Positions 3,230-64,000 of a stretch of DNA of 64,000 nt are shown piece by piece. This stretch comes from an uncultured Ignavibacteriales bacterium (GTDB taxonomy: Bacteria; Bacteroidota; Ignavibacteria; Ignavibacteriales; Ignavibacteriaceae). The notes beneath the pieces were generated by a model that did not search any database, was not told the DNA's origin, and saw nothing but the letters and a program-made list of their open reading frames with translations. The translations under genes and the position numbers were made by a program. How positions within the stretch are numbered: position 1 is the first letter of the stretch; every line of letters begins with the position of its first letter. Location: NCBI GenBank assembly GCA_903929035.1, contig CAIYTF010000084.1, positions 13,938 to 77,937 on the forward strand, read 5' to 3'.

Positions 3230-4215
3230 TGAAAAGAAATTACTGTACACTGTTTGATATAAACTATTTAAGCCGCGGAATCGCGATGTATAATTCGTTG
3301 AAACAATGGAGTAATGACTTCCATTTATATATTTTTGCATTTGATGACAAATCGCTCCAAATATTACGTGAGGAATGTCTTGAGCATACCACGGTCATTT
3401 CATTAAATGAATTTGAAGATGAGAAATTGCTTGCCGTAAAACCGAGCAGAAACCGTGCAGAGTATTGTTGGACTTGCACGTCATCAACCATTATTTACTG
3501 CATTAATAAATTTCACCTTGACAGCTGCACCTATTTAGATGCAGACCTTTTCTTCTATAGTTCACCTGAACCAATTTTCAAGGAACTTGGCACAAAATCT
3601 ATTTTACTGACCGAACACAAATACTCAGCTCAATATGCCCGCGATAATAAGAACGGTAAATATTGTGTGCAGTTTATTAGTTTTAAAAATGATTCTGCCG
3701 GAATGGAGGCTTTAGAATGGTGGCGGGAACGTTGTTTAGAATGGTGTTATGATCGTCACGAATCCGGTAAATTTGGCGACCAAGGGTATTTGAACGACTG
3801 GTCAGAAAGATTTGAAGGCGTTCACTCGCTCCAACACCTCGGCGGAGGCGTAGCAGCTTGGAATGTGCAGCAATACGAAATATTTTCAGAAAATGGAGAT
3901 ATTAAAGGAAAAGAATTCAATACAGGAAATGTTTTCCCTATAATATTTTATCATTATCACTACTTGAAATTTATTAATAATGGCACAATAGAGTTAGGAC
4001 GACGAAAATTAAGCCCAAATGTGTTTTCTTGTTTGTATATACCATATATTAAGGAGCTGCTAAAATTACAAGCATACATATCAGATAAATACCAAGGCAT
4101 TAACTCAAGTGGCTCTGCCCCTTATCGGCTAAAGTGGAAAACGCCCATCCTATATATTTTACGTAAACTTCGCGGTGTCTATCATATCTATAAAGTGAAA
4201 GAACTTTTAGAATAA
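3226..4215 (+). CDS. Nucleotide-diphospho-sugar glycosyltransferase (GT8-like fold)
   Basis: 4-nt overlap with the upstream gene. N-terminal CTLFDINYL..., DxD-type motif YLDADLFF. Confidence 0.45.
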   Translation: MMKRNYCTLFDINYLSRGIAMYNSLKQWSNDFHLYIFAFDDKSLQILREECLEHTTVISLNEFEDEKLLAVKPSRNRAEYCWTCTSSTIIYCINKFHLDSCTYLDADLFFYSSPEPIFKELGTKSILLTEHKYSAQYARDNKNGKYCVQFISFKNDSAGMEALEWWRERCLEWCYDRHESGKFGDQGYLNDWSERFEGVHSLQHLGGGVAAWNVQQYEIFSENGDIKGKEFNTGNVFPIIFYHYHYLKFINNGTIELGRRKLSPNVFSCLYIPYIKELLKLQAYISDKYQGINSSGSAPYRLKWKTPILYILRKLRGVYHIYKVKELLE

Positions 4216-7052: not shown

Positions 7053-10000
7053 TTATTTCACCAGTACGACAGGAATAAGTTTAGTAACCTCGCCGCTTGG
7101 GTCTTTAGCCGAAATTTGAATAATATAGCGGCCGTTATTGGCTTCATACCCGTCATTAGTTTTCCCATCCCACGCTAATGCACTTATAGTTGAAGGCTTA
7201 TAAACTCCCGGCATCTGCAAGTCATTTTGAATCACGTTTTTAACTAATTCCCCCCGCATATTGAAAATTTTTATGGTAACAGTAGCAGGCGGCTGCAGTG
7301 AATTTAACTTATAACCAATTTGCACAGGGGCAATTTTGGGAGAAAACGGAGTCGGTAATACTGCTGCATACTTTATCCCCAGAGGCTCATTTTCTGCTAA
7401 TATAGAATACTCTCCAAACGATATAATTTCCGCAGAAAATGATGCTGCGCCAAATGGATTAGTAGTACGAATCGTCCACTCATTTGAGGTGGTATTGTAA
7501 TAACCGATTGTCTTAGCTCCTTCAAATGCCCTCAATGAAGGATCAATCTGTATTTCAAGAGTCATTGGCTTAATAGTCGTATCACCGGCTATTTTTATAT
7601 CCGATAAATATGTAATAAAATATTGTTTATCGGACACAACATACGATGTTAAATCAGTTATATAATTCTTTTTAGCAGGCCCAAATTGTGCCTTCCCAAG
7701 CGTAACCTTAACAGGTATCATAACTGAACCAGGCACTATCTTGAGATTCATTCCGTCTTTATCTGTCAATGTCATATTAGACGTTGAATCGACATCAGCG
7801 TAAACGGTGAGGTCTGTTATTCCCTTTTTACCGCTTACTTTATCTAATGCAGTTACTTCAACATTACCTATAAATAAAGAATCAACCGGTTTAAAGAAAC
7901 CTGTAGAGTCAATTGTTCCGCCTCCAACCGGAACTATACTCCATTTTAGGTTTGTTCCAAGCATTACTGCTTTTGAAGCAGTATCAATACCTGAATACGA
8001 GAACTGCAGCCCGCTTGACTTATTACTCAATTGCTGAACAGACTTTGTTACATTAATTGATTTTAAAATCACGTTGCCAACCGTAACAGAAGCTTCTTGT
8101 GATACACTGAATCCGTTCAATGTCCCGCTTGCCGTGATTTTTGATGTAGTATCTTTTAGAGTAGTTAAAAGAATGACTGTGCTATCACCCGAAGTAGCTT
8201 TTGGATAGCTTATTTTAAAAACTGATGTATCAATATTCCAATTTATCGTACCCTTCGGTGCAGTACCTTGAAAAGAACTTAACAGACTATTGTTCTTTCC
8301 ATCTTTTACAAGCATAGATATTTCATAAGTATCATTTTTACGTAAGGTTGCTTTATCTATCAAAGGTTTGAATGAAATTGATGATAATATTCCTACAGCT
8401 TCAGGAGTTAAGGTATATTTGTCGCTGGTATAAACAACACCTGTTGAGGTCTCGCGAATCACAACATAATACGTTACCTTCACGAGCGAGTGCAATGCAG
8501 GGATTTGCCACGTTATTGTTGAATTTGCTAAATTCACACTATCCACACTATTCTCTGAACCCGTACCCAATTGATATTTCAGTTTTGCATCAAGGGCAGG
8601 TAAGGTCCCTTTATAGAAAACAGTTACTGTTGCCGGATTTGAAGCATCAATTGACGTAAGAGGAGTTAATTTATATCTCAATGACACATTTCTCGAAATT
8701 GTTGAATTATCATTTACAAGATTAAAAACTGTCAATGAGTCATTTGGTGATAGATAATTATCTCTCGAGATATTTAACTTATATTTACCTGCTGAAAGTT
8801 TTGGTTGCGTTTCGAACTTGCCGGTTTTATCAGTAACGGTCTGCGATTGATTACCATCGGGACGAACAAAAATCAAGTTCACATCAGATAAAGCAGTACT
8901 TTCACCATCATTAATGGTAACACTTATCTTTCCACTCGGAATACTAAAGTCCGGCAGTCTAACCGATTGCCCTTTCATAGAAGCAGGTACTGGAACAGAT
9001 GTATCGCGTGTTTGAAAATCAGTTCCTGAAATCGATACTCTATAAATTGTTGTGTCGCCGGTACCCGTTTTAATTGGCAATGCACTAAATGAATATTCAC
9101 CGCTTAAATCGGTAGTAGTACTAAACGAGTTTGACGATAGTGCAGTAACTGTTGTGTTCGCTAATCCTGCGCCTTTATATGTTACTTTGCCGGACAATTT
9201 AACAAAAGTCGGCGAAAGAGTAATATTCTTCTTAGTGTAATTCATACCCGTCACCAAATTATCTGTAAGTGTATCTGATTTATAACCGGTAAAAGATGCA
9301 CTTATAGTCGCAGCCCCGGCTGCTAAACTTCCAAATGTATAGTTCCCGTTAGACTCAGAAACAACTGAAAATGTTTGTCCTGTAGCGGTATTGCGATACT
9401 CAACATTTGCACCGGCAACACTAACGCCTGATGGATTAGAAAGTGTAGTATCTTTTACTACAGTACCTGAAAGAGAAACATTGTTTTTAATAAGAGTAAC
9501 ATTTTCAGTTGCAGTTACATTATTAGCAATTGTAACATTTTTCGGCGTTGACTGTGATGAATAGCCGGTTTTGTTAACTTGTAGAACAAATTCTTTTGTA
9601 GGAACGCCGTTTGTAGGAACGCCGGTAAACGTAAATGTCCCTGACTTACTAAGACCGGAGTATGAATATAAGGTATCAGTACTTGTAATATTTACAGAAA
9701 CAGAATCCAAAGAAACTCCGCTCTCGTCTTTAGTATTAACAGTTAGATTTCCTGAACTCTTTGTAGCTATAAAATCCATAATCCGACTGGCACCAACAGC
9801 GAGGTCTATATCTGCAACACTTGTGGGTGAGAACGTGAAACCCGTTTTACTTACTGTAACTGTATAAGATCCGTTCAAAAGGAAATTAACACTATAAGTT
9901 CCATCCGAATTTGAAACGCTGTTAAATGTTTCATTGGTTGTTTTGTTTTTTACACTTATCACCGCGGATGGAGTACCGACTGTTCCGGAAATAGAAGCAT

Positions 10001-14462: not shown

Positions 14463-14984
14463 TTATTTTTCTTTACGCGTGGATGCTAAAATCATATCAA
14501 CGAATTCCCTATAAGCACCTTTCCCGCCGCGCCGTTTGCACACGTACATAGCTGCTTTTTTTACCTCTTCTACCGCGTCACGGGGTGCAGCACTTACCCC
14601 AACCTCTTTCAATAACTCTAAATCATTAACATCATCACCCATAAATGCAACAGCTTCCAAAGTACAATTCTGCTCTTCACAAATTTTTTTCGCGGCAGCA
14701 AGTTTCTCGTATGTACCAATTACTGTATAATTAAATTGTAATTTTTCTCCGCGTATTTTACCTATCATAGAAGCATCTGAAGAAATTAAACCCGTTATAT
14801 AGCCTGAACTTTTTAATAGCACGGCACCCATCCCATCTTTTACATTATATTTTTTCATAGTTAATCCGTTTTCCGTATAATACATTCCCCCATCCGTCAA
14901 ACAACCGTCAACATCAGTTAACACTATTTTGATTTTTGCTAATTTTTTCCTGAAGTCTGTATGTTTTCCAATTTTTTTGCTCAT
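14463..14984 (-). CDS. kdsC: HAD-IIIA phosphatase, KdsC-like (3-deoxy-D-manno-octulosonate 8-phosphate phosphatase family)
   Basis: Motifs LTDVDGCLTDG, KDGMG, FMGDDVNDL. Confidence 0.65.
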   Translation of the reverse strand: MSKKIGKHTDFRKKLAKIKIVLTDVDGCLTDGGMYYTENGLTMKKYNVKDGMGAVLLKSSGYITGLISSDASMIGKIRGEKLQFNYTVIGTYEKLAAAKKICEEQNCTLEAVAFMGDDVNDLELLKEVGVSAAPRDAVEEVKKAAMYVCKRRGGKGAYREFVDMILASTRKEK

Positions 14985-15065
14985 TCTATTATGAAATTCC
15001 TATTGTTACTGCTATTATTAAAAAGAAATTATTATATTGCAAATATAGCTTATTAAAGGAATACA

Positions 15066-15578
15066 ATGGAAAATCCGCCTAATAAAACAAAAACAGTGAT
15101 ATTCAAACGTCCATCGTGGGATGAGTATTTCCTGAAATTGGCAATGCTTGTATCAGAACGGGCAACCTGCCCGCGTATGCATTGCGGATGTGTCCTCGTG
15201 AGAGACAGGCAAATACTTTCAACCGGTTATAATGGTTCAGTACCGGCACAGCCTCATTGCGAAGAGGCCGGCTGCAAAGTAATTGATAATCATTGCATCC
15301 GCACTATTCACGCCGAAATGAATGCTATTTTGCAATGCTCATCTCACGGTGTGAGTACACATAACGCGACTGCATATATCACGAATATGCCTTGCACTAA
15401 CTGCGCGAAAGCACTTATTGCAGCCGGAATTATTGAAGTGGTGGTTTTTTCCGATTTTCACGATACTCTTGCTGAAGAATTTTTCGGATTATCGAATGTC
15501 ACCCTTCGCCGCTTGGAAATGCCCGCGACGAAAATAAACTATGACTTAGATTCTTATCACTCGGCAAAGTTAAAGTAA
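15066..15578 (+). CDS. dCMP deaminase (cytidine/deoxycytidylate deaminase zinc-binding family)
   Basis: HAEMNAI and PCTNCAKALIAAGI zinc-binding motifs; WDEYF N-terminus. Confidence 0.8.
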   Translation: MENPPNKTKTVIFKRPSWDEYFLKLAMLVSERATCPRMHCGCVLVRDRQILSTGYNGSVPAQPHCEEAGCKVIDNHCIRTIHAEMNAILQCSSHGVSTHNATAYITNMPCTNCAKALIAAGIIEVVVFSDFHDTLAEEFFGLSNVTLRRLEMPATKINYDLDSYHSAKLK

Positions 15579-53378: not shown

Positions 53379-55379
53379 ATGGGACAATTTTCAATTGCAA
53401 GACGAATAAATTATTTACTTGGTTTAGTCCTATTTTGTTCGCTTGGAATAATTTTTTTTCTCCTTCTAACAAAGGAAGAGACATTAAAAGTAGAAGTAAC
53501 TAAAGAGAATGTCCACGAACTTTCTGAGATATTGAGAGAATCAATAATGTTTTCAATGGCAGGGGGGGTTCCTGATGTGACTCCATTGATTCGGCAAATA
53601 CAAAAAATAAAGAATATCCGCGAATTAAGGGTAACTCCAACCAACCTTATTCGTCCAAACAGTGAATTAAAACTTGACGGGCAAGAAATTGAAGTTCTTA
53701 ATTCGCGAAAACTAAAATTTTTTAATGAAATCTACAAGGGTGAAGAAGTTTTAACTTCTATTGAGTTGCTCTCATCAAATGAAACCTGCACATCCTGCCA
53801 CGAATCAGTAACAGGTGATCCACTTGCAGTTGTAAGCATCCGCTATACTATGGCAGAAACCTACGCGACAATTGCCTCGCAGCGTCTTGAAGCAATTCTA
53901 CTGGGTATAATTGCTCTATTGGTTGTCTTCTTCCTGATTAAATATTTTATTAAAAAATATATCCTGCACGATCTTGATCGAACGGTTGCGGCACTTGATA
54001 AACTTTCTGTCGGAGACATTTCCGAAGAGATTACAACTGACCGTAATGATGAAATGGGCAAACTTCTAAACTCGCTCCAGTCCCTTCAACGCGGGTTGAA
54101 AAATCAGGCTGACGCCATTTTAAGAATAGCAAATGGAGACCTCACTTCTGATATTCAGCTGCTTTCTCAAAAGGATGTTTTAGGCAAAGCAATGCAAACC
54201 GTGAAGCATAATCTTTCGAAATTGGTGGATGATACAGCTATGCTGTGTGCCGCGGCTATTAACGGCGATTTAGGGAAGCGTGCCGATGTCAGCAGACAGA
54301 AGGGTGATTACCAAAAAATCGTACACGGTATAAATGACATTTTGGAAGCAGTTATAAATCCGATTAAGGACGGTGCGACAGTACTCGCGTTTATGGCTGA
54401 TGGTGATTTTACTCAAAATATATCCGGCGAATATAAGGGGGATCATAAACTTATAATAAATAGTATTAATAAACTGCATAGCTCACTTTCTAAATTAATA
54501 GCTAACGTGCAGGATGCCGTTGATGCTACTGCAAGTGCCAGCGCGCAAATATCTTCAAGTGCCGAGGAAATGGCTTCCGGTGCTCAATTGCAATCAACAC
54601 AAGCATCAGAGGTTGCAGCAGCAGTCGAAGAGATGACCAAAACCATCTTTGAAACTACAAAAAGTACTTCTGTTGCATCAGAAACTGCCAAAAAATCCGG
54701 TAAAATGGCTAAAGAAGGAGTTGGTGTAGTTACTCAAACTATTACCGGAATGAACAGGATTGCTGACGTGGTATCTAAATCTGCTGATACTGTTTTTGCT
54801 TTGGGTCAAAGCAGCGACAAAATCGGTGAAATTGTTCAGGTTATTGATGATATTGCCGATCAAACTAATCTTCTGGCTTTAAATGCCGCTATTGAAGCTG
54901 CCCGCGCAGGTGAACAAGGAAGGGGTTTTGCCGTGGTTGCTGATGAAGTGAGGAAACTTGCAGAGCGAACAACCAAAGCAACCAAAGAAATTGCCTCGAT
55001 GATAAAACAAATTCAGAAAGATACTGATAGTGCTGTTGAGTCAATAAGAGAAGGTAAGGATGAAGTTGAGGCTGGAAAAAAACTTGCTACCGAAGCCGGA
55101 AAAGCCCTTGAAGAAATCGCTTCTGGAACACAAAAGGTTACCGATATTATTGTCCAGGTAGCCGCAACCGGTGAAGAACAGTCTGCAACCTCCGAACAAA
55201 TTAGCAAAAGCATTGATGGTATCAGCAATGTTACCAGAGAAACAGCCGGGGGAATTGAGCAAATGGCAAGGTCTGCCGAAGACTTGAACCGATTAACTAC
55301 AAATTTACAGGATTTACTGAGTACATTTATCATAAAAAAACAAGATACCAAATATCTCAAAATAGATCTGGGGCGGTAA
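53379..55379 (+). CDS. Methyl-accepting chemotaxis protein with a CxxCH-containing periplasmic domain and multiple HAMP-like repeats
   Basis: TM1 (aa ~12-30), periplasmic region with CTSCH (aa 137-141, nt 53787..53801), TM2 (aa ~170-190), HAMP. Signalling hairpin [37 protein letters not shown]. Confidence 0.9.
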
Positions 55380-55438
55380 CTCTTTGATTTAGCCTTTGAA
55401 AGCAGTCCTAAATTAGAGTTTGTCTGCAATTCATAGCA

Positions 55439-55573
55439 CGGTAAACCGCGATCAAAAAAGTTTAAAAGTCGGAATGTTTTTTTGTGCCTGTAACTAACTA
55501 TTATACTGTAAGTTATACGAACACCACAAAATATATTGACATAAAAAATAAAGATTTACATTGTAATACTATA
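55439..55573 (-). repeat. Inverted-repeat element, copy B (135 nt)
   Basis: Reverse complement of copy A (43888..44013), with an extra CAATGTAA. Confidence 0.85.
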
Positions 55574-55723
55574 ATATCGAATTTCCATTGATTGCAAGCC
55601 GGCAAATAGAGTTTATCTTTTTCAGATAAATTATTAAAGAAAAGTATGATGGACTTTTCAATTGTTATGACTTATTTTTAATTCATTTATTACCGGTTAG
55701 GATACCAAAACAGGTACATAATT

Positions 55724-56599
55724 CTAATGATTAATATCGGTTAGCATATCGTATGTTTCAGGGCGGCGGTCTCTATAGAACTGCCATATATTACGCACTT
55801 CCAATATTTCATCAAGGTTCAAATCGGCGGTTACTATTTCATCTTTATCCCGGCTTGCTTCCGCGATAATTTTTCCGCGCGGAGAACAGAAATAACTTTG
55901 TCCAAAAAATTCTCCTATGTTCCAAGGGGCTTCTATTCCAACACGGTTAATTGCACCGACAAAATACCCGTTAGCAACCGCGTGTGCAGGCTGCTCCAGC
56001 TTCCAGAGGTATTCAGCGAGGCCCGCGACAGTTGCGGATGGATTAAAAACTATTTCAGCACCGTTTAAGCCAAGTACGCGGGCACCTTCAGGAAAGTGGC
56101 GGTCATAGCAAATATATACGCCTATATCCGCGTAAGCAGTTTTGAACACAGGGTATCCGAGAGTACCCGGTTTAAAATAGAACTTTTCCCAGAAACCCGG
56201 CTCACAATGAGGAAGGTGATGCTTGCGGTATTTGCCAAGATATTTGCCGTCAGCATCGATAACTGCCGCGGTATTGTAATTTACTCCGGTAATTTCTTCT
56301 TCATAGATAGGGACAATAATAACCATACTATGTTTTTTGGCAAGTTCCTGCATTAATTTAATGGTTGGCCCATCAGGGATTCGTTCAACAAGCGAGTACC
56401 ATTTTGTTTTTTGTTCCGCGCAAAAATAGGGACCAAAAAATAATTCCTGCAGACATAAAATTTGAACCCCTTTTTTTGCAGCTTCTTCAATCATTATGAT
56501 ATGCTTATCAATCATCGATTGTTTCACTTCCATAATTGGTCTTTCGGAAGATATTGAAAGGTTTGCCTGAATCAATCCGCCTTTAACTATTCGAGACAT
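55724..56599 (-). CDS. Carbon-nitrogen hydrolase (nitrilase superfamily; beta-ureidopropionase / N-carbamoylputrescine amidase-like)
   Basis: Glu-Lys-Cys triad contexts LCLQELF, YRKHHLP and GVYICYDRHFPE. Confidence 0.75.
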   Translation of the reverse strand: MSRIVKGGLIQANLSISSERPIMEVKQSMIDKHIIMIEEAAKKGVQILCLQELFFGPYFCAEQKTKWYSLVERIPDGPTIKLMQELAKKHSMVIIVPIYEEEITGVNYNTAAVIDADGKYLGKYRKHHLPHCEPGFWEKFYFKPGTLGYPVFKTAYADIGVYICYDRHFPEGARVLGLNGAEIVFNPSATVAGLAEYLWKLEQPAHAVANGYFVGAINRVGIEAPWNIGEFFGQSYFCSPRGKIIAEASRDKDEIVTADLNLDEILEVRNIWQFYRDRRPETYDMLTDINH

Positions 56600-56652
56600 A
56601 ATAACTCCATTTTAATACTGAAAACACGGCTATTCCGCTCAAAATTTCCCAT

Positions 56653-57384
56653 CTATTTAATTTCAAACGACGCGTTCACCACCGCTGTTATTTCTTTTTC
56701 AACAGATGAGACATCATTAATTCCGGAGTCTGAAATCGCGTTGGAGTTTTTGGGAGTTATCTGCAGCACTCCCATTCGCGCATTTCTCAATACACCAATC
56801 TTCGAGTTGGATGCTTCTGCAATTTTTGTTGCTCTAATATAGGCATCTTTTGCTGCCTCTGCCTGAATTTCAATTTTTAATTTAGCTATTTTTGTAAAAT
56901 AATATTCAGGTTGATCAACAGTAAAATTTACTCCTTTTTCAACAATTGATGAAATATCCAAAGAGATATTTTTGATTTTTTGGCAGTCTTCCGATTGAAT
57001 TTCAAATCGCTGAGAATAATTATATCCGACCACATTATTTGTCATCGCGCCTGAAGGAGTGAGTTCATAAACACTATTGCTTACCACTGCATTGAGTACA
57101 ACTTTATCCTTTGGGAAACCTTGTTTTGCAAGATAGTCATACAGAGCAGGCTTTTGTGCTTCTAATTTGCGAAAAGCATCGGCAGCCCCCGATGATGTAG
57201 AGTTTATAGTTCCGCGTAAAATTGCAAAGTCCGAAATGATGTCGCGTTTAGCCGAGCCTGTTACCGTGATTGTTTCATTGGAACTCGTGTGATTTCGCCA
57301 CGCGCTATTCATAATTATGCCGACAATGATAAAACCGGCTGCAATAATACTTGCAGAAATAATAAGAGGATTTTTTTCTTGCAT
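56653..57384 (-). CDS. SIMPL / DUF541-domain periplasmic protein with N-terminal membrane anchor
   Basis: N-terminal TM, ITVTGSAKRDI.SDFA start and overall SIMPL-like length and pattern. Confidence 0.6.
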   Translation of the reverse strand: MQEKNPLIISASIIAAGFIIVGIIMNSAWRNHTSSNETITVTGSAKRDIISDFAILRGTINSTSSGAADAFRKLEAQKPALYDYLAKQGFPKDKVVLNAVVSNSVYELTPSGAMTNNVVGYNYSQRFEIQSEDCQKIKNISLDISSIVEKGVNFTVDQPEYYFTKIAKLKIEIQAEAAKDAYIRATKIAEASNSKIGVLRNARMGVLQITPKNSNAISDSGINDVSSVEKEITAVVNASFEIK

Positions 57385-57446
57385 ATAAATCTTTTCTAAA
57401 TTGTTAAGTATAAAATTATAAAATTATCAGTAATTTTTAAAATGGT

Positions 57447-57686
57447 GTAACTGTTTAGGTCAAAAAAACCGTGTATATTTTTTCCCGTTAGAGCCTGTCC
57501 CGTTTCGCGGGAGAATTTATGTTTGTAGAAAACAGCCCCGTACGGCACGATTTCCCGTATGGGAATATATGTTGCATTGATACCAAACAACATATATTTC
57601 CATACGGAAAAACGAAATACAGGGGGCTATGTGTTTTCTACAAACATTTTTCTCCTAACGGAGAATTAGAGAACCTAAACAGTTAC
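57447..57686. repeat. 240-nt imperfect foldback (long inverted repeat) element
   Basis: The termini GTAACTGTTTAGGT / ACCTAAACAGTTAC are perfect. Internal matched blocks are ATGTTTGTAGAAAACA / TGTTTTCTACAAACAT and TTCCCGTATGG(G)AATATATGTTG / CAACATATATTTCCATACGGAA. The left arm carries about 35 extra nt. Confidence 0.8.
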
Positions 57687-57791
57687 GAGATGGTTTAGAA
57701 AATCGGACATAATTCACTTAAATATCCGGAGAAAAAACATTTGCAAGTATCAGTATACTCATTTATTATACTGTTAAGACCTTAAAAGCAT

Positions 57792-58991
57792 CTAACACCC
57801 TCCCAAAACTCTGTTTTTGGCTTTCTTAACGCCGCTTCCCGCCTGCTTTTGCTTAAATTCCTTAATCAGCAGCGGCAATGCAATACTTGCCTGTGTCCTG
57901 AATCGGTGAGTATCTATTTCCTGCCTGTCTTGTCCCTCTATCGATTTTGGAACTTCAAACATATCTTTTTTAAATTGGTTTAATCCGCCCTTTAATACCA
58001 ACAATCCTTTAAAGCCTAACTGCTCGGCAATCAAGGCTCCTTTTGCTGCAGTCTGTTCATCATCTGCAATAAAAACATTTCTTGTATTCTTCAGCAATAG
58101 TAATTTATTCGCGTCTTTTTCAAAGAGGCTTTCCTTCGTAACACGTATAGACCGCGGCAGCGGCATTGCATCAAAAGATTTCTGGTCGCGAAGATCAAAT
58201 ATTTGTAAATCCTTGTCGTTATCCATTAATCTGAAAGCCAGTTCATCGCTTGTTATGAATTCAACTTTTCGCGATGCCGCGATTTCACTATCAGATGATT
58301 TCTTGATAATGGACTCTTTTCTATCAGGCATAATAAATGCGGATAAACCAATTACCATTGCAATAGCAGTTAATCCGGCATAGAGCGGCTTAGCGTTAAG
58401 TTCAGGGTTAGGCTTGCCGTTTACTTTATTTTCGATCAATGTCACAGCCCAAAAAGCTCCGACTGCAAAAGCGATTAAAAGAAATGCAAACAGTGACTGC
58501 GATACACCCATCACATCGAATATTTTCACGCTGCCCCAATTTGCCGCTTTATATAAACCTTCGAAAAGCGGATATCCTTCTGCAAATATCAGCACGCCAA
58601 TAAAAGAGCCGGCAATGAAAATCATCGCGTCAATTTTACCGATTGCAGCTGCACAAACACTCGTGCCGGGACAATAACCGCCGACAACAAACCCGATTCC
58701 CATTATTAACCCGCCAACCAAAGCAGACCATAAGAATGTAGGGTTTACATAGACTAACGATATATCAATTAATCCGAAATGATTCAGCGCGACAACGCCA
58801 ATCATAGCAGTAACTCCGGCTGTGAAGAACACCCGTAACACGGTAAAATCGTAGCCATAAAACAAACCAACTAACTTTTTAGAAGTCGAAAATCCGGCTT
58901 GTTCAAGTATAAATCCAAAGGCAATTCCGATAAAAAGCGCGGCAACAAAATTCAGTTCATTGCCGATAATTTCAGGTACTAACGGTCCCAT
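57792..58991 (-). CDS. YeeE/YedE-family (sulfur-compound transport) membrane protein fused to a Cys-less rhodanese-like domain
   Basis: Likely start is the ATG at 58991 (AAGGAAA RBS), giving MGPLVPEII...; the track ORF runs upstream to 59129 and overlaps the next gene. Conserved GGYCPGTSVCAAA motif. The C-terminal ~100 aa have a rhodanese-like pattern (...LVLKGGLNQF). Confidence 0.7.
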   Translation of the reverse strand: MGPLVPEIIGNELNFVAALFIGIAFGFILEQAGFSTSKKLVGLFYGYDFTVLRVFFTAGVTAMIGVVALNHFGLIDISLVYVNPTFLWSALVGGLIMGIGFVVGGYCPGTSVCAAAIGKIDAMIFIAGSFIGVLIFAEGYPLFEGLYKAANWGSVKIFDVMGVSQSLFAFLLIAFAVGAFWAVTLIENKVNGKPNPELNAKPLYAGLTAIAMVIGLSAFIMPDRKESIIKKSSDSEIAASRKVEFITSDELAFRLMDNDKDLQIFDLRDQKSFDAMPLPRSIRVTKESLFEKDANKLLLLKNTRNVFIADDEQTAAKGALIAEQLGFKGLLVLKGGLNQFKKDMFEVPKSIEGQDRQEIDTHRFRTQASIALPLLIKEFKQKQAGSGVKKAKNRVLGGC

Positions 58992-59005
58992 AATAATTTC
59001 CTTTC

Positions 59006-59521
59006 TTATATCCACAGTTTTCTGAAAAAATAGGCAAAGGCATACGCACCGCCAAAAATAGCCAGCATAGTAATAATTCCGCCAAAGGAGAGAACTGCCA
59101 TACCGCTCAATGCAGCTCCGCTGGTACATCCTCTGCCGAGCTGCGCGCCAAACCCAAATAACAAACCGCCTATTGCAGCCCCTGCAATCCGAGTTCCATT
59201 CATAATCTTCGGTGATTTTTCCATTGTAAACTTCAATCGGTTTGAAATCAAACCGGAAACAAACGCCCCAATTACAACGCCAATAACTTCAAACACTAAC
59301 CAGTTTTTCAGCGGGTTGCCGGGGTGTTCTTCAGTATATTCCGTATAAAACTTTGTATTGTTTGTATGGGCGGGGGCAACCGTTTCAACCGCGGCAACAA
59401 CAGCACTTTTAACCGCGCCGCTCGCGCCTAAACCTCTTCCTGTAATAAAAATTGTTGCCAATAATATTAAGCCGAGGAAAAATCCGGCTAAATATGGATT
59501 CATATATTTTGTTTCATTCAT
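59006..59521 (-). CDS. YeeE/YedE-family membrane protein (first half of a split transporter)
   Basis: GRGCTSGAALSG motif; 4 TM segments; 4-nt overlap with the cytochrome b gene. Confidence 0.7.
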   Translation of the reverse strand: MNETKYMNPYLAGFFLGLILLATIFITGRGLGASGAVKSAVVAAVETVAPAHTNNTKFYTEYTEEHPGNPLKNWLVFEVIGVVIGAFVSGLISNRLKFTMEKSPKIMNGTRIAGAAIGGLLFGFGAQLGRGCTSGAALSGMAVLSFGGIITMLAIFGGAYAFAYFFRKLWI

Positions 59522-60195
59522 TTGGAAACCTCAATTCCGGAATTTTGTGTTTTGCTGCTGTTAGAATTATTCGTTTTCTCGTTATCGGCATCTTCAAATT
59601 CTTCGTAACCCGTAATCATTGCTTTCAAATTAGAGGTTATGTCCGCACCTGTTGTAACCAGATACAAGTGTACAACAATAAACGAAAGCAGCATAAATGC
59701 CCCTGCTGTATGAAAAACTGCAATCCCTTCTATTGAATCAATATTCAACCCGACAATGGCTCCTTTTTGCGGATAGCGATAAAACATATACAGCAAACCG
59801 GAAATTACCATTGCAGGAATAACAAGAATCTTCAGTGAAAAATAAACTAATTTTTGCAGCGGATTAAGTTTACTCAGCACTGTCTTTTTTGTCGGATGGG
59901 GTTCATTCCTGAACATCCCGATTAAATAATAATTTATCTGTGCCATCATATTTTCCCCTGTTGGTAAATACTGCCGCCATTCGCCTGTGGCAAAGTGCCA
60001 AAAGATTGCAAATACTATTAATATCATAAACGCGTAAGCCGCGGCATTATGATATTTCACCGCGTTAGCATATCCGAAAAAAGTGATAGAACCGTGAATT
60101 TCAAATCCTGTCACCGCCATAAAAAATATGATTATTGCCTGCATCCAATGCCAGAAGCGTTCAAAAGCTCTATAGATATATACTTTATGTTTCAT
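59518..60195 (-). CDS. Membrane di-heme cytochrome b (Ni/Fe-hydrogenase / PhsC-type cytochrome b family)
   Basis: RFWHWMQA N-terminus, conserved His in TM helices (HG, YHNAA, WHFATGEW, FHTAGAF, VVHLY). Confidence 0.7.
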   Translation of the reverse strand: MKHKVYIYRAFERFWHWMQAIIIFFMAVTGFEIHGSITFFGYANAVKYHNAAAYAFMILIVFAIFWHFATGEWRQYLPTGENMMAQINYYLIGMFRNEPHPTKKTVLSKLNPLQKLVYFSLKILVIPAMVISGLLYMFYRYPQKGAIVGLNIDSIEGIAVFHTAGAFMLLSFIVVHLYLVTTGADITSNLKAMITGYEEFEDADNEKTNNSNSSKTQNSGIEVSK

Positions 60196-61772
60196 TATAA
60201 TCCTCTTGTTTTCATTTTACGTGAAGTCATTATTCTCATTGTTCCGTGCAGCAAAATACCAAGCAGCGAAAGCAGCAAAGCACCTATACCTGCATATTCT
60301 ACTATCGGGTTATTATCTCTCGCGGGCATATAAAAATCTTTAAGGTTTGCCAGCCGGCTTCCCTGACTTGTATGACATTCGATACACTTCACAGAGTTTT
60401 CTTTTGATGAAACCATATGGTTCACGGGCCAATACATATTTGTTTGAATAAAAGCAATCTGCCCGCTAAATGGAAGATTTACATCACGCATACCTACTTC
60501 AGCAGCGCGTTTCCAGTTAAAATCCTTCCACAAAGCTCCTTCTCCTTTTTTATCGGAATAGAGTTTGGGCTGAATTAACATTTTTGTAACAGGGTCAAAC
60601 GGCTGACGTGCCCGATGAATTTTAACGGGAATTATTTTTGAATCTTTATCATTATACGCGCCGTTCAATTTATTTATTGTTAGCGGCTTAGAAGTATCAG
60701 ATACCGTATCGCCCAGCAGATAGTGATTTGCAGTGCCGTTAAACCAGATATATTCCGGCTTAAGATTCTTTCCCCACTTAAAACTGCCTTTTATTGAAAG
60801 ATAAGTATGATTTCCATCCTTGTCATCTTCTTCGTAAGGTTCACCGTTTTTTAACTTGCCGGCAGTGGACCAGTCCCACTCTGTTTTTGTTGCATTAACT
60901 TTCGCGTAGGTTGGAATGTGACAAGTCTGACACGCTACTTTCAAAGTATGTCTATTAAGCACGGCATCCTCGTGCGGGTTTTCTGAATGGCACTGCTCGC
61001 AAGTTGCGCGATTACGATTCATTGAAGAGAGAGAATACATCTTACCGCTGATATTATGATTTTCAGTTTTGTGACAATCAACACATTGCAGATTCACTCC
61101 ATCCACTCCCATATGAACATCCACATCTTTTGCCGGTTCAAACATCGACTTTTCCAAATCGCCGTGCTTCACGTTATTGCCGCCGCCGCCAAAGAAATGG
61201 CACACACCGCAATTCGAACGCTTTGGTTTACCAACGTGCCGCGCGATGTTGGCAAGGTCTAAATTGCCCATTGGTGCGCCACCCTTTTCAGGTGCCTTCG
61301 TGTATGTTTCAGTGTTATCGTGGCAGATAAGGCAGTCAATGTTGGTTGAATCAGTAAACGAAAATGTTTTTGCATCGGTCATACCAAATCCAATGTGGCA
61401 CTTGGCACAGCTTGTTTCGTTACCCTCTGTGCCAATACAAAAATTGTTAATAGCATTTTTCTTCCCGAGATACACGACACCGCGTCCCTGAATATACTCC
61501 GGTTTTTCCCAATTCCAGTGATTGGACTTCATTACTTCTTTGTGCCGTTCCGTGTGGCACGAAATACAGGCAGCTGTTACCTGTCGCGGATCGGAAAATA
61601 CTTTTTGCAAAACCGCGAATTTAGTATGGTCCACAACCGGTACTTTTTTGGAGGTTAACTTTGCTCTCAGCAAAGAGAGAGGAGGTTTCTCTGTTTCTTT
61701 CGGGATAAGTATCCCAATTGAAATTATTAGCACTAATCCTATTAGCAAAAGAGCGATAACTATTCTTTTCAA
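60195..61772 (-). CDS. Octaheme c-type cytochrome, tetrathionate-reductase (Otr) family-like, with N- and C-terminal hydrophobic helices
   Basis: Eight CxxCH motifs: CISCH, CAKCH, CLICH, CGVCH, CVDCH, CEQCH, CQTCH, CIECH. The stretch NCGVCHFFGGGGNNVKHGDL recalls Shewanella Otr-type proteins. Confidence 0.7.
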   Translation of the reverse strand: MKRIVIALLLIGLVLIISIGILIPKETEKPPLSLLRAKLTSKKVPVVDHTKFAVLQKVFSDPRQVTAACISCHTERHKEVMKSNHWNWEKPEYIQGRGVVYLGKKNAINNFCIGTEGNETSCAKCHIGFGMTDAKTFSFTDSTNIDCLICHDNTETYTKAPEKGGAPMGNLDLANIARHVGKPKRSNCGVCHFFGGGGNNVKHGDLEKSMFEPAKDVDVHMGVDGVNLQCVDCHKTENHNISGKMYSLSSMNRNRATCEQCHSENPHEDAVLNRHTLKVACQTCHIPTYAKVNATKTEWDWSTAGKLKNGEPYEEDDKDGNHTYLSIKGSFKWGKNLKPEYIWFNGTANHYLLGDTVSDTSKPLTINKLNGAYNDKDSKIIPVKIHRARQPFDPVTKMLIQPKLYSDKKGEGALWKDFNWKRAAEVGMRDVNLPFSGQIAFIQTNMYWPVNHMVSSKENSVKCIECHTSQGSRLANLKDFYMPARDNNPIVEYAGIGALLLSLLGILLHGTMRIMTSRKMKTRGL

Positions 61773-61875
61773 ATTTATTTTCCTATGTTGTTAATTGTTA
61801 ATTGGTACTTGTCAGCCCAAAATATTCAAATTGAGTGCCTAAATAATAGCTTTACTTTGATAATTTACCATTATT

Positions 61876-62307
61876 TTACATTTTACCATTATTATTTGTA
61901 TGTTCGATGATTGCAGATTTTACGTGATTGCAGTCAGTAAAATCTCGATACACCGGACATTCGCTGCAGGGGCTTGTCTCACATACATTATCGAAGTGTT
62001 TATATGACCAGCAAGGCTTTTCGGAAGATGTATATGCTTCGCACTTTTCCCTATCAGCCTTGGAACAGCCTTTTATTTTCCAGCAGGGTATCATAGCGAA
62101 GGCCATTTTTACACCGGCAATTCCAATTTTCCTTTCGGTAATTGCTTTGCGCACGCAGGCAAGACGGTCAATATCCAATTGGGAATATAGTCTCTGTTTC
62201 GATTCCTTTTTATATGGCAGCACAAAACCCTCTATTTCATAAAGCCGCAACAATGGAATTGAAATTCCCAATAACTTTGCCGCTACCCTAATTGGGTATA
62301 GCGGCAT
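61876..62307 (-). CDS. MerR-family transcriptional regulator with a C-terminal Cys-rich double PCW domain
   Basis: Likely start is the ATG at 62307 (MPLYPIRVAAKLLGISIPLLRLYE, MerR HTH). The C-terminus is PCW-x4-GC-x7-C-x9-PCW-x8-C-x4-C-x2-C-x9-C. Confidence 0.7.
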   Translation of the reverse strand: MPLYPIRVAAKLLGISIPLLRLYEIEGFVLPYKKESKQRLYSQLDIDRLACVRKAITERKIGIAGVKMAFAMIPCWKIKGCSKADREKCEAYTSSEKPCWSYKHFDNVCETSPCSECPVYRDFTDCNHVKSAIIEHTNNNGKM

Positions 62308-62530
62308 ATCCGCCGAAATATTTTTTATGCCGCCTGCATCCTTATTTTGCAATTTACTTTCTTTGTAATGAACTTGATAATTATAGCTATCAACTTTCTT
62401 GCCAATTTAGATTATCTGTTTTTGACACAATTTTGATGAGCGAATATCGAATTTTTTCATAAATGAGAATGCTATATTTGTCAAAAGTGAGAGGACTTTC
62501 ATAAATGAGCAGGTTGTATAAAAGTAATCA

Positions 62531-62565
62531 ACAAAAAAAAGGCTGCCTTGTGAAAGACAGCCTTT
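62531..62565 (-). terminator. Rho-independent terminator after groEL
   Basis: Minus strand: AAAGGCTG(T)C-loop-G(G)CAGCCTTT followed by TTTTTTTT. Confidence 0.75.
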
Positions 62566-62589
62566 GTAAAACAGGAGAGGGAAAAGATA

Positions 62590-64000
62590 TTAATACATAT
62601 CGCCCATACCCTGCGGAGATGCAGGCATCATAGGGGCTTTGTTTTCATCTTTTTTCTCGAAAACGACAGCTTCAGTTGTTATCAATAATGATGACACTGA
62701 TGCGGCATTTTGAAGAGCAGTTCTGGCAACCTTGGTTGGGTCAATAACGCCGGCTTTCAGCAAGTTTTCATAAACTTCTGTAGCAGCATTGAATCCAAAG
62801 TCATTCTTGCCCTCTTTAACTTTTGCAAGAATTACCGAGCCTTCAAGTCCGGCATTGCTGACTATCTGACGAAGTGGTTCTTCAAGAGCTTTGACGATGA
62901 TTTGAATACCGGTTGTCTGGTCATCGTTATCACCTTTCAAATTAGCAAGTTTTTCAATCGCGCGGACGAAAGCAACACCGCCACCGGGGATGATACCTTC
63001 TTCAACTGCAGCGCGGGTCGCGTGCAAAGCATCTTCAACGCGTGCTTTCTTTTCTTTCATTTCAATTTCTGTGGATGCACCGATTTTTAATACAGCAACA
63101 CCGCCAGAAAGTTTTGCAAGACGTTCCTGCAATTTTTCGCGATCGTAATCTGAAGTTGTTTTGTCAATTTGCGCTTTAATTTCATTAATGCGTTTCTTGA
63201 TTTCATCAGCAACTCCGGCACCTTCAACAATTGTAGTGTTATCTTTATCGATAGAAACTCTCATTGCAGTGCCAAGTTTTGAAATGTCCGCGTTTTCGAG
63301 TTTGAATCCGCGTTCTTCGGAGATAACGGTACCGTTAGTAAGAACAGCTATATCTTCAAGCATTGCTTTTCTTCTGTCGCCAAAGCCAGGGGCTTTTACC
63401 GCGGCAACTTTCAAAGTTCCGCGAAGTTTGTTCACTACTAAAGTAGCAAGTGCTTCACCTTCAAGGTCTTCAGCAATTATGAGAAGTGAGCGTCCGCCTT
63501 GAGCAACTTTCTCAAGTACAGGGAGCAAATCTTTCATAGCAGAAATTTTCTTGTCGTGGATTAGAATGAACGGATTCTCTAATACTGATTCCATTCTCTC
63601 TGCATCTGTGACAAAATAAGGGGAGAGATAGCCACGATCAAACTGCATACCTTCAACAACGGCTAAGGTTGTTTCGGTGCCTTTTGCTTCTTCAACGGTG
63701 ATAACGCCGTCTTTGCCGACTTTTTCCATTGCATCAGCAATTAATTCGCCAATGAATTTTTCGTTGTTAGCAGAGATAGAACCAACCTGAGCAATTTCTT
63801 CTCTTCCTTCAACTTCTTTGCTCATCGATTTGAGAACCGCGACAACTTCGTTAACTGCAATGTCAATACCGCGTTTGAGGTCCATCGGGTTTGCACCGGC
63901 AGTTACATTCTTCAAGCCTTCACGATAGATAGCCTGAGCTAAAACAGTCGCCGTTGTTGTTCCGTCACCCGCGGCATCGCTGGTTTTGGAAGCAACTTCG
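62590..64000 (-). CDS. groEL: Chaperonin GroEL, N-terminus truncated by the window edge
   Basis: The frame stays open to base 64000 and encodes ...[39 protein letters not shown]. The M at 63915 in the track is an internal TTG (Leu). Confidence 0.95.

Follow-up and report, generated by a model that had tools for sequence, protein, structure and literature searches.

Related systems

The octaheme tetrathionate reductase Otr of Shewanella oneidensis (PDB 1SP3; TIGR04315) belongs to the same family as the cytochrome examined here. Its natural substrate has long been debated, and the purified Shewanella enzyme also reduces nitrite and hydroxylamine (cited in PMC7509429 and PMC11879220). Shewanella-type Otrs are 455-470 aa, and their neighbors are a monoheme cytochrome c and a DUF3373 protein, or nothing relevant. 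A cluster of Otr with cytochrome b561 has already been noted in an Ignavibacteriae genome (PMC7509429), yet full-text searches found no paper linking Otr with YeeE/YedE. Split transporters of the YeeE family, named PmpA/PmpB or YedE1/YedE2, are known from Serratia and Cupriavidus. They are encoded by two adjacent genes, the first matching the C-terminal half of YeeE and the second the N-terminal half (PMC11582611). YedE1E2 imports zero-valent sulfur directionally and needs one Cys in each subunit (PMC10812762). Within PsrABC/PhsABC systems a quinol-linked periplasmic reductase of sulfur compounds may be accompanied by a periplasmic rhodanese-fold sulfur-binding helper, of which Sud of Wolinella would be an example. 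SoxY appears to carry sulfur on a flexible C-terminal GGCGG arm, and formate dehydrogenase-N and [NiFe]-hydrogenase seem to be held to a four-helix cytochrome b by a single C-terminal transmembrane (TM) helix on the electron-transfer subunit.

The locus described here was found in an uncultured Ignavibacteriales bacterium, within a window of 64,000 nucleotides of contig CAIYTF010000084.1 (GCA_903929035.1). It joins an Otr-family cytochrome, a cytochrome b, and a PmpA/PmpB-like pair whose second half is fused to a rhodanese-fold domain ending in Gly-Gly-Cys (Table 1). With respect to the Shewanella-type Otrs, it differs in having a C-terminal TM helix, a cytochrome b, PmpAB and a rhodanese domain. 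In contrast to PmpA/PmpB of Serratia and Cupriavidus, the subunits are longer (171 aa, and about 220 aa of membrane part), the PmpB half carries two extra TM helices and the fused domain, and the pair is linked to a respiratory-type reductase instead of to persulfide dioxygenase and ArsR-type regulators. Compared with PsrABC/PhsABC, the reductase is a multiheme cytochrome c with a cytochrome b anchor and not a molybdoenzyme with an NrfD anchor, while the helper lacks the rhodanese active-site Cys and uses a C-terminal Cys instead. As in SoxY, the Gly-Gly-Cys probably lies on a flexible periplasmic peptide and is preceded by basic and aliphatic residues, although the fold is rhodanese-like rather than the beta-sandwich expected of SoxY, there is no SoxZ partner, and the context is reductive. 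The cytochrome b belongs to the same Pfam family (PF01292) as that of formate dehydrogenase-N and [NiFe]-hydrogenase and likewise has four conserved His, but its partner is an octaheme cytochrome c and not an Fe-S subunit.

Table 1. Features of the locus, numbered by position in the window.
Feature	Position	Strand	Size	Remarks
Intrinsic terminator	62538..62565	-	12-bp stem	Followed by a T run; ends the upstream groES-groEL operon; upstream boundary of the unit
Palindrome	62374..62393	-	20 bp	TTGATAGCTATAATTATCAA; upstream of merR; candidate operator and promoter region
MerR-family regulator	61876..62307	-		ATG start; a TTG at 62352, used by the public gene call, would give 158 aa
Otr-family octaheme cytochrome c	60195..61772	-	525 aa	N-terminal signal or anchor and C-terminal TM anchor
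Otr C-terminal TM helix	60234..60308	-		Invariant His509 and Arg513; followed by a basic tail
Cytochrome b	59518..60195	-	225 aa	Four-helix, di-heme; Ni_hydr_CYTB / PhsC-like; presumed quinol oxidase and membrane anchor
PmpA/YedE1-like half transporter	59006..59521	-	171 aa	Matches the C-terminal half of YeeE
PmpB/YedE2-like half plus rhodanese (whole gene)	57792..58991	-	399 aa	
PmpB/YedE2-like membrane part	58437..58991	-		N-terminal half of YeeE (helices H1-H6) plus an H7-like fifth TM helix
Sixth TM helix	58329..58385	-		Equivalent to the signal-anchor of free-standing RhdGGC proteins
Rhodanese-fold domain	57957..58265	-		No catalytic cysteine
C-terminal extension	57795..57956	-		Helix, Lys-rich variable linker and terminal K-R-x-x-G-G-C (GGC codons 57795-57803)

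Organization and conservation of the locus

A first-pass annotation of the sequence had described five co-directional genes, their overlaps, eight CxxCH motifs and a C-terminal hydrophobic helix in the cytochrome, and the open reading frames and the sequence itself confirm all of these. The stop codon of otr and the start codon of the cytochrome b gene share base 60195 (TAATG), cytochrome b and the first YeeE half overlap by 4 nt (ATGA, 59518-59521), and the two YeeE halves are 14 nt apart. However, contrary to that annotation, merR is not tightly coupled to the other genes. It lies 103 nt upstream of otr and is separated from groEL by a strong terminator. GroEL is not a conserved neighbor.

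The core of Otr, cytochrome b, PmpA-like and PmpB-like::rhodanese is colinear in 80 of 80 related loci from different species, as far as each contig reaches, which is far beyond chance. The same core also appears in divergent relatives whose rhodanese parts are only 27-35% identical. Pfam and NCBIfam searches confirmed every domain assignment of the first-pass annotation.

Octaheme cytochrome and cytochrome b

The cytochrome is a true member of the Otr family, as the first-pass annotation proposed, and does not fall with HAO/ONR/MtrA. It scores 581 bits with TIGR04315 against a cut-off of 375, and 424 bits against the solved structure 1SP3 over 421 residues (residues 54-474). It contains exactly eight CxxCH motifs (CISCH, CAKCH, CLICH, CGVCH, CVDCH, CEQCH, CQTCH, CIECH) as well as the stretch CHFFGGGGNNVKHGD. 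Both it and the Shewanella protein have the CHF(F/Y)GGGG..VKHGD stretch and the GKKN...C residues. K104 and C112, the equivalents of K56 and C64 of 1SP3, are invariant in 79 orthologues. Every Ignavibacteria-type orthologue has DFYMPxRD, then a hydrophobic helix (...HGxxR), then SSRKxKK, while 1SP3 and the Shewanella-type Otrs lack this helix. Docking of the helix to cytochrome b is inferred, and the invariant His and Arg within it have no assigned role.

The cytochrome b scores 91.8 bits with PF01292 against a cut-off of 30.1. Its best NCBIfam hit is thiosulfate reductase PhsC, yet at 96 bits this is below the cut-off of 204, and no solved homologue was found by sequence. H16, H67, H162 and H176 (plus H34, H49 and H100) are invariant in 72 orthologues, the first four lying in the expected helices.

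Split transporter and rhodanese-like domain

The first-pass annotation had described a split YeeE/YedE importer of thiosulfate or other sulfur compounds. We found that the halves are of the PmpA/PmpB (YedE1E2) type, which has been linked to zero-valent sulfur import, and not of the type of the thiosulfate transporter TsuA. The first half matches PF04143 profile positions 175-309 of 310 and the second half positions 4-161, and both gene order and half assignment agree with the description of PmpA/PmpB (PMC11582611). Cys132 in the GRGCTSG motif of the first half and Cys107 in GG(Y/F)CPGT of the second are invariant, corresponding to the one Cys required in each subunit of YedE1E2.

The rhodanese-fold domain scores 35-37 bits with PF00581 against a cut-off of 22.2. 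It is modelled by AlphaFold with pLDDT 80-89, and Foldseek gives target-normalised TM-scores of about 0.77 to single-domain rhodaneses. No Cys lies near the active-site column in 117 of 119 family members. Instead, the conserved feature is the C-terminal arm, which was not noticed in the first-pass annotation. All full-length orthologues end in (K/R/S)-R-x-x-GGC, mostly KR[VIA][VIL]GGC. The helix at residues 356-385 is modelled confidently, while residues 387-399 are disordered. Of 150 family representatives, 118 carry a C-terminal Cys tail, and some members even end in GGCG(V/A/S).

Three lines of evidence place this domain most likely in the periplasm. First, in the YeeE crystal structure the N terminus is outside and the H7-H8 loop is cytoplasmic (PMC7449682), and one extra TM helix would then carry the C-terminal domain to the periplasmic side. 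Second, across 71 orthologues the sixth TM helix has a mean hydropathy of 2.06, with a net charge of +2.0 in the loop before it and -1.0 in the segment after it. Third, free-standing homologues of the domain carry an N-terminal signal-anchor (51 of 59) or a lipoprotein signal (4). However, AlphaFold could not model the membrane half (pLDDT below 50), so the placement rests on homology, charge bias and the signals of homologues, and the tail is strongly basic (net +6.5), which is unusual for a translocated segment.

Of note, the free-standing homologues lie in PsrA-PsrB-PsrC-PmpA-PmpB-Rhd clusters. Where the contig reaches far enough, PmpB is present in 62/62, PmpA in 47/48, PsrC in 33/33 and PsrA in 23/23, while Otr and CytB are present in 0. 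The best hit of the molybdoenzyme is thiosulfate reductase PhsA, although the Psr-like partners could equally be polysulfide, thiosulfate or selenite reductases. One carrier-and-channel trio therefore serves two unrelated sulfur-type reductases.

Regulatory region

A regulator lies directly upstream of the core in 57 of 79 loci. It is either the MerR with eight conserved cysteines (30 loci) or a two-cysteine MarR (27 loci), so that the Cys-rich MerR, which the first-pass annotation took to be a dedicated regulator, is the upstream regulator in only about 40% of species and is replaced by a MarR-type regulator in about 35%. A MerR orthologue lies directly upstream on the same strand in 28 loci. 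The protein has an N-terminal HTH and scores 34 bits with PF13411 against a cut-off of 21.6, while the HspR, SoxR and CueR equivalogs all fall below their cut-offs. C75, C81, C89, C99, C109, C114, C117 and C126 are conserved in 33 sequences, yet the C-terminal domain that contains them has no Pfam or NCBIfam hit. Additionally, a palindrome of the form TTGATA-N8-TATCAA, often as TTGATATTTATAAATATCAA, recurs 54-68 nt upstream of the merR orthologue in at least 9 of 30 loci from different species. Binding of the regulator to this site is inferred only.

Proposed function

We suggest, with a probability of roughly 0.55, that the locus encodes two physically and functionally coupled units under one regulator. 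In the first, a di-heme cytochrome b would take electrons from menaquinol and pass them to the periplasmic Otr, held on the membrane by its C-terminal helix, which would reduce an oxidised sulfur species at its Lys-ligated heme. Tetrathionate is the most likely substrate, while polysulfide, or sulfur bound to the carrier, is also possible. In the second, the PmpA/PmpB-like heterodimer would act as a cysteine-relay channel, with the non-catalytic rhodanese-fold domain and its Lys-rich arm tethered to it. The arm cysteine is proposed to bind sulfur covalently as a persulfide or thiosulfonate, as the SoxY arm and Sud may do, and to shuttle it between the reductase and the periplasmic cysteine of the channel, which relays sulfur into the cytoplasm. 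The MerR (or the MarR in other species) would switch the operon on in response to a redox or sulfane-sulfur signal. Family memberships, conserved residues and gene linkage are established by the sequences and the topology is strongly inferred. However, in the absence of any expression or biochemical data, the quinol input, the substrate, covalent carriage on the arm, the direction of transport and the regulatory signal are inferences only. The in vitro activities of the Shewanella enzyme mean that the fold does not fix the substrate, and the role of an importer next to a respiratory reductase is not obvious. Nonetheless, the linkage of Otr to the channel and its cysteine arm points to a sulfur compound as the natural substrate of this enzyme.

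Alternative interpretations

It is possible, though less likely, that the module serves mainly for sulfur acquisition and does not conserve energy. Otr-CytB would then reductively cleave external tetrathionate or polysulfide only to load the arm and the PmpAB channel, supplying sulfane sulfur or thiosulfate for biosynthesis in anaerobes that cannot assimilate sulfate. YedE1E2 is an importer that raises cellular sulfane sulfur (PMC10812762), the PmpA-PmpB-Rhd trio also occurs with no reductase within about 5 kb upstream, and one divergent locus has a cysteine-desulfurase-type aminotransferase (PF00266) directly downstream. However, the trio is almost always attached to a full quinol-linked respiratory-type reductase. 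This reading differs from the proposed function in emphasis more than in mechanism, and the two roles can coexist.

A role of Otr as a nitrite/hydroxylamine reductase in ammonification or detoxification, next to transporter genes of unrelated purpose, is improbable. Otr reduces both compounds in vitro and is often counted as a DNRA marker (PMC11879220, PMC7509429). Against this, linkage to the PmpAB-Rhd trio is 80 of 80 with translational coupling, the same trio accompanies Psr/Phs-type sulfur reductases elsewhere, and no nitrogen-metabolism gene recurs in the neighborhood.

Equally doubtful is a selenium oxyanion as the substrate, in which case Otr-CytB (and the Psr-like enzymes elsewhere) would reduce selenite while the Cys arm and channel would handle selenium. 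YedE-family proteins are implicated in selenium transport (PMC11582611), weak NCBIfam hits to YedE/FdhT and to rhodanese-type selenoproteins were obtained, and the only known respiratory selenite reductase (Srr) is a Psr-like operon with two rhodanese-domain proteins (PMC12481199). However, all selenium-family hits fall far below their cut-offs (25-35 bits against 200-350), no selD/selA or other selenium-utilisation genes recur nearby, and sulfur compounds are far more abundant in the source habitats.

Lastly, operation in the oxidative direction, with thiosulfate or sulfide bound to the arm as in the Sox system and electrons passing from Otr into the quinone pool, is very unlikely despite the resemblance of the arm to SoxY of an oxidative pathway and the frequent reversibility of multiheme enzymes, as no sox, dsr or sHdr genes recur nearby, the tetrathionate/thiosulfate couple (about +198 mV) probably lies well above menaquinone and would make such oxidation uphill, and the equivalent partner elsewhere is a Psr/Phs-type reductase.

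Gene content and family assignments

Listing of the open reading frames and inspection of the minus-strand sequence confirmed five co-directional genes, as the first-pass annotation had described (see the table of features). The junctions are also as it described: the cytochrome and cytochrome b genes share base 60195 within TAATG, an ATGA overlap covers 59518-59521 between the cytochrome b and first YeeE genes, and a 14-nt gap separates the two YeeE halves. The merR gene lies 103 nt upstream of otr and is separated from groEL by a terminator, while about 400 nt of non-coding DNA follows the last gene.

Positions of the features of the locus and of additional genes noted in other loci
Sequence	Feature	Position	Strand	Details
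Window	MerR-like gene	61876-62307	-	TTG at 62352 is an alternative start, used in the public gene call
Window	Otr-family octaheme cytochrome c gene	60195-61772	-	525 aa
Window	Cytochrome b gene	59518-60195	-	225 aa
Window	YeeE half (PmpA-like) gene	59006-59521	-	171 aa
Window	YeeE half plus rhodanese (PmpB-like::rhodanese) gene	57792-58991	-	399 aa
Window	Terminator between merR and groEL	62538-62565		12-bp stem
Window	Palindrome upstream of merR	62374-62393		20 bp, TTGATA-N8-TATCAA
Window	Direct copies upstream of merR	62455-62477 and 62497-62519		TTTCATAAATGAG..., 42 nt apart
Window	Nested imperfect palindrome, intergenic	57447-57686		roughly 240 nt; arm pairs 57447-57460/57673-57686 (14 nt), 57519-57534/57632-57647 (16 nt) and 57548-57574/57588-57614 (27 nt)
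Window	Methyl-accepting chemotaxis protein gene	53379-55379	+	666 aa
Locus L052	Second, divergent Otr-like gene	9233-9871		
Locus L059	Second, divergent Otr-like gene	14840-15553		
Locus L064	Second, divergent Otr-like gene	14968-15537		
Locus L171	Class-V aminotransferase gene	2454-3617		PF00266, cysteine-desulfurase type

The cytochrome scores 581.2 bits on TIGR04315, the tetrathionate reductase family of octaheme cytochromes, against a cut-off of 375 and covering model positions 1-440 of 440. Against the Shewanella Otr structure 1SP3 it scores 424 bits over residues 54-474. Exactly eight CxxCH haem-binding motifs are present in the translation. The stretch GKKNAINNFC aligns with GKKNSINNFC at residues 55-64 of 1SP3, in which Lys56 is probably the unusual ligand of haem 2 (Mowat et al. 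2004). K104 and C112, which correspond to Lys56 and the neighbouring Cys64, are invariant in 79 orthologues. The cytochrome b matches PF01292 at 91.8 bits against a cut-off of 30.1, and its four expected histidines in TM1, TM2 and TM4 (two), H16, H67, H162 and H176, are invariant in 72 orthologues. Its best NCBIfam hit is the thiosulfate reductase subunit PhsC (NF011582). However, this hit reaches only 96 bits against a cut-off of 204, so that identity with PhsC at the equivalog level is not supported, and a PDB sequence search with the cytochrome b gave only spurious light-harvesting hits.

The first small membrane protein matches the C-terminal half of the Sulf_transp profile (positions 175-309) and the second matches the N-terminal half (positions 4-161) and carries a PF00581 rhodanese domain. 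This order and split are exactly those described for PmpA/PmpB (PMC11582611). The homologous YedE1E2 pair imports zero-valent sulfur in one direction and needs one cysteine in each subunit (PMC10812762), and both of those cysteines, Cys132 in GRGCTSG and Cys107 in GGYCPGT, are invariant here. The subunits do differ from the small PmpA and PmpB proteins of about 130-140 aa with four TM helices, as one of the present proteins has 171 aa and the other comprises a six-TM membrane part fused to a 180-aa soluble region. The pair does not conform to the TsuA/YeeE thiosulfate transporter, a single polypeptide of about 330-350 aa with nine TM helices, since it is split into two genes and scores only 51 bits against 400 on NF052577 and 26 bits against 645 on NF041049.

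The regulator has an N-terminal MerR-type HTH (PF13411, 34.2 bits against a cut-off of 21.6), yet it does not fall within a characterised subfamily (HspR, SoxR, CueR, CadR); HspR scores 46 bits against 105 and SoxR 19.5 against 117. Pfam and NCBIfam scans of the C-terminal eight-cysteine domain alone, up to E=10, found nothing. Because HspR is the best NCBIfam hit, a role as a heat-shock repressor of the adjacent groESL was considered. This was rejected, as the score is below cut-off, a strong terminator separates the MerR gene from groEL, GroEL is not a conserved neighbour and MerR sits directly upstream of otr in 28 other species.

Conservation of the gene arrangement

A scan of one genome per GTDB species returned 429 Otr-encoding stretches, of which the best 80 were kept. 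These are 64-76% identical to the window protein, and almost all are from Ignavibacteria, Ignavibacteriales or Melioribacteraceae MAGs. In every one, otr is followed in the same order and on the same strand by the cytochrome b, PmpA-like and PmpB-like::rhodanese genes, as far as the contig reaches, and the fusion is intact in 73 of 74 loci. GroEL and the SIMPL and CN-hydrolase genes located downstream in the window are not conserved neighbours, and the latter two were left out of the unit. In a few Ignavibacteria genomes a second, divergent Otr-like gene (40-44% identical) lies 4-5 kb downstream of the operon.

Directly upstream on the same strand lies one of two regulators. One is the MerR with eight conserved cysteines, found in 30 loci, in 28 of which it is immediately adjacent, usually 19-57 nt away. 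The other is a 146-aa MarR-like protein with a conserved C-x5-C near its N terminus, found in 27 loci. A regulator is therefore dedicated to the unit, but its type is interchangeable. Of note, in 11-12 of the MarR loci hrcA-grpE-dnaJ lie divergently just upstream, whereas in the window groES-groEL lie upstream; the repeated neighbourhood with heat-shock operons is unexplained. The palindrome upstream of merR in the window is also found upstream of merR in at least nine other species.

Differences from characterised Otr proteins

Shewanella-type Otrs are 455-470 aa in length, and 1SP3 ends shortly after the last haem motif. The Ignavibacteria proteins add a DFYMPxRD motif, a hydrophobic helix with invariant His509 and Arg513, and a basic tail. 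In Shewanella and Marinobacter the neighbours are a monohaem cytochrome c and a DUF3373 protein, while in Malonomonas the gene stands alone; cytochrome b, PmpAB and rhodanese are all absent there. In both Shewanella rhizosphaerae and Marinobacter the classical Otr gene is preceded by the monohaem cytochrome c and the DUF3373 protein (566-570 aa), which looks like a conserved three-gene unit of its own. One genome paper has already noted an "Otr and cytochrome b561" cluster in an Ignavibacteriae MAG and suggested quinone-pool input (PMC7509429). However, full-text searches found no paper that links Otr to YeeE/YedE genes.

The rhodanese-like domain and its C-terminal arm

The rhodanese fold is supported by PF00581, at 35-37 bits against a cut-off of 22.2, and by Foldseek, with a target-normalised TM-score of about 0.77, although this search returned only generic rhodaneses. 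The domain is not, however, a conventional sulfurtransferase. The active-site loop reads FIADDEQTAAKG, with the position of the catalytic cysteine occupied by FIADDEQ, and no Cys lies within the loop region in 117 of 119 family members. The domain as a whole is weakly conserved. In contrast, every full-length orthologue ends in (K/R/S)-R-x-x-G-G-C, mostly K-R-[VIA]-[VIL]-G-G-C, after a variable Lys-rich linker. This terminal cysteine is the only conserved one, and in 59 of 71 orthologues it is the only cysteine in the C-terminal 164 residues. Selenocysteine read-through at the C terminus was rejected because the stop codon is TAG. An AlphaFold2 model of the PmpB::rhodanese protein, built with 58 homologues, predicted the rhodanese fold with confidence (pLDDT 80-89), followed by a long helix (356-385) and a disordered tail. 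The membrane half was not modelled (pLDDT below 50), probably because the PmpA partner was absent, so the model could not settle the topology and only the rhodanese domain and the following helix were usable.

Three lines of evidence point to a periplasmic location of the domain. In the YeeE crystal structure the N terminus is outside and the H7-H8 loop is cytoplasmic (PMC7449682); the PmpB-like part aligns colinearly with H1-H7 and is followed by one further hydrophobic helix, which would cross back to the outside. Across 71 orthologues the loop before that helix has a net charge of +2.0, and the segment after it -1.0. Lastly, a search of 1.8 billion representative proteins with the domain plus tail found only 240 clusters, many of which are free-standing proteins of 200-230 aa. 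These have an N-terminal "MKK plus hydrophobic" signal-anchor (51 of 59) or a lipoprotein signal such as ...FLLGC|NQ (4 of 59), and they share the same Cys-less rhodanese fold and a C-terminal GGC, EGGC or GGCG(x). The sixth helix of the window protein is thus the equivalent of their signal-anchor. Taken together the periplasmic location of the arm is strongly inferred.

Genomic context of free-standing homologues

Of the free-standing proteins, one lies in PmpA-PmpB-Rhd with no reductase nearby, while three others follow a molybdopterin subunit, a four-cluster Fe-S subunit and an NrfD-type anchor. The best NCBIfam hit of the catalytic subunit is thiosulfate reductase PhsA, at 476 bits and below its cut-off. 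A metagenome scan with an 8-sequence alignment gave 80 further loci. Where the contig reaches far enough, PmpB is upstream in 62/62, PmpA in 47/48, PsrC-like in 33/33 and PsrA-like in 23/23, and Otr and the cytochrome b are present in none. The highly conserved six-gene cluster PsrA-like-PsrB-PsrC-PmpA-PmpB-Rhd(GGC), the sister arrangement to the operon of the window, is often followed by one or two further rhodanese genes and occurs in Bacteroidetes-labelled MAGs, for example Bacteroidetes bacterium GWF2_33_38. Conversely, divergent fused PmpB::Rhd proteins (27-35% identical in the rhodanese part) again follow cytochrome b, and Otr where the contig extends that far. In one divergent CytB-PmpA-PmpB::Rhd locus (L171) the next gene is a class-V aminotransferase, which hints at a link to cytoplasmic sulfur trafficking.

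The PmpA-PmpB-Rhd(GGC) trio therefore accompanies two unrelated, membrane-anchored periplasmic reductases, both from families known for oxidised sulfur substrates. This is the strongest available argument that the Ignavibacteria Otr acts on a sulfur compound. The natural substrate of Otr has been uncertain since its structure was solved, as it reduces tetrathionate, nitrite and hydroxylamine in vitro, and it is often scored as a nitrogen-cycle marker in metagenomes. The ties of Otr to a cysteine-relay sulfur channel in Ignavibacteriota, and of the same channel-and-carrier trio to Psr/Phs-type reductases in other bacteria, together give a concrete, testable argument that this large Otr clade belongs to the sulfur cycle.

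Proposed mechanism and alternatives

The first-pass annotation proposed a quinol-linked respiratory and transport module for sulfur compounds, and this interpretation is supported and sharpened by the present analysis. Each part belongs to a known family, while the combination, the anchored Otr and the Cys-less rhodanese with a terminal GGC arm appear to be undescribed. In the mechanism, which is inferred, menaquinol would be oxidised by the cytochrome b and electrons would pass through the eight haems of Otr, docked by its C-terminal helix, to an oxidised sulfur species. The terminal cysteine of the flexible arm would bind sulfur covalently, much as the SoxY GGCGG arm or the Sud protein of Wolinella is likely to do. 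The resemblance to SoxY is an analogy of mechanism only, since just the GGC(-G-x) arm is similar, the fold is rhodanese-like and no soxZ recurs nearby. The arm would move the sulfur between the reductase and Cys132 of PmpA at the periplasmic mouth of the channel, from which Cys107 of PmpB would relay it inward. The Cys-rich MerR, or the two-Cys MarR, would sense a redox or sulfane-sulfur signal. Tetrathionate is the simplest substrate, as it reacts with thiols to give a thiosulfonate adduct and thiosulfate and is the substrate for which the family is named, yet polysulfide is equally compatible with the Psr parallel.

The analysis also brings out a widespread, unannotated protein family, a probably periplasmic rhodanese fold with no catalytic Cys and a terminal GGC arm, which may be the missing extracytoplasmic partner of PmpAB/YedE1E2 transporters and a reductive analogue of the SoxY swinging arm. 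These proteins are a candidate new class of periplasmic sulfur carrier. A further possibility, which we consider rather unlikely although it would be of considerable interest, is that these proteins are membrane-tethered sulfur carriers that form a reductive-side counterpart of SoxYZ, and that the true substrate of the Ignavibacteria Otr, and of the Psr-like enzymes in the sister clusters, is sulfur bound covalently to the terminal cysteine of the carrier (persulfide, polysulfide or thiosulfonate) and not a free ion. The same arm would then feed the PmpAB cysteine relay, which would both define the physiological substrate of an Otr clade and give PmpAB its missing periplasmic partner.

Among the alternatives, a mainly assimilatory role differs from the proposed mechanism in emphasis and not in parts. 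Reduction of nitrite or hydroxylamine is supported only by in vitro data on the Shewanella enzyme, and is argued against by the linkage pattern. A selenium substrate is kept open by the YedE relatives and by the Psr-like selenite reductase operon with rhodanese proteins (PMC12481199), but all selenium-specific profile scores are far below their cut-offs. Operation in the oxidative direction is probably thermodynamically unfavourable with menaquinone.

Other features of the locus

The nested imperfect palindrome between the PmpB::rhodanese and SIMPL genes folds at -104.9 kcal/mol against -52.8 for shuffles (z = -10.9) and occurs only once in the window. It has no Rfam match, and an Rfam scan of 55000-64000 found nothing credible. 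It could be a long terminator, a MITE-like element or a structured RNA. The two direct copies upstream of merR lie between the groEL terminator and the merR promoter region. Of note, the methyl-accepting chemotaxis protein, encoded 2.4 kb from the Otr operon, has a CTSCH (CxxCH) motif between its two N-terminal hydrophobic segments, which suggests a periplasmic c-type-haem sensor domain.
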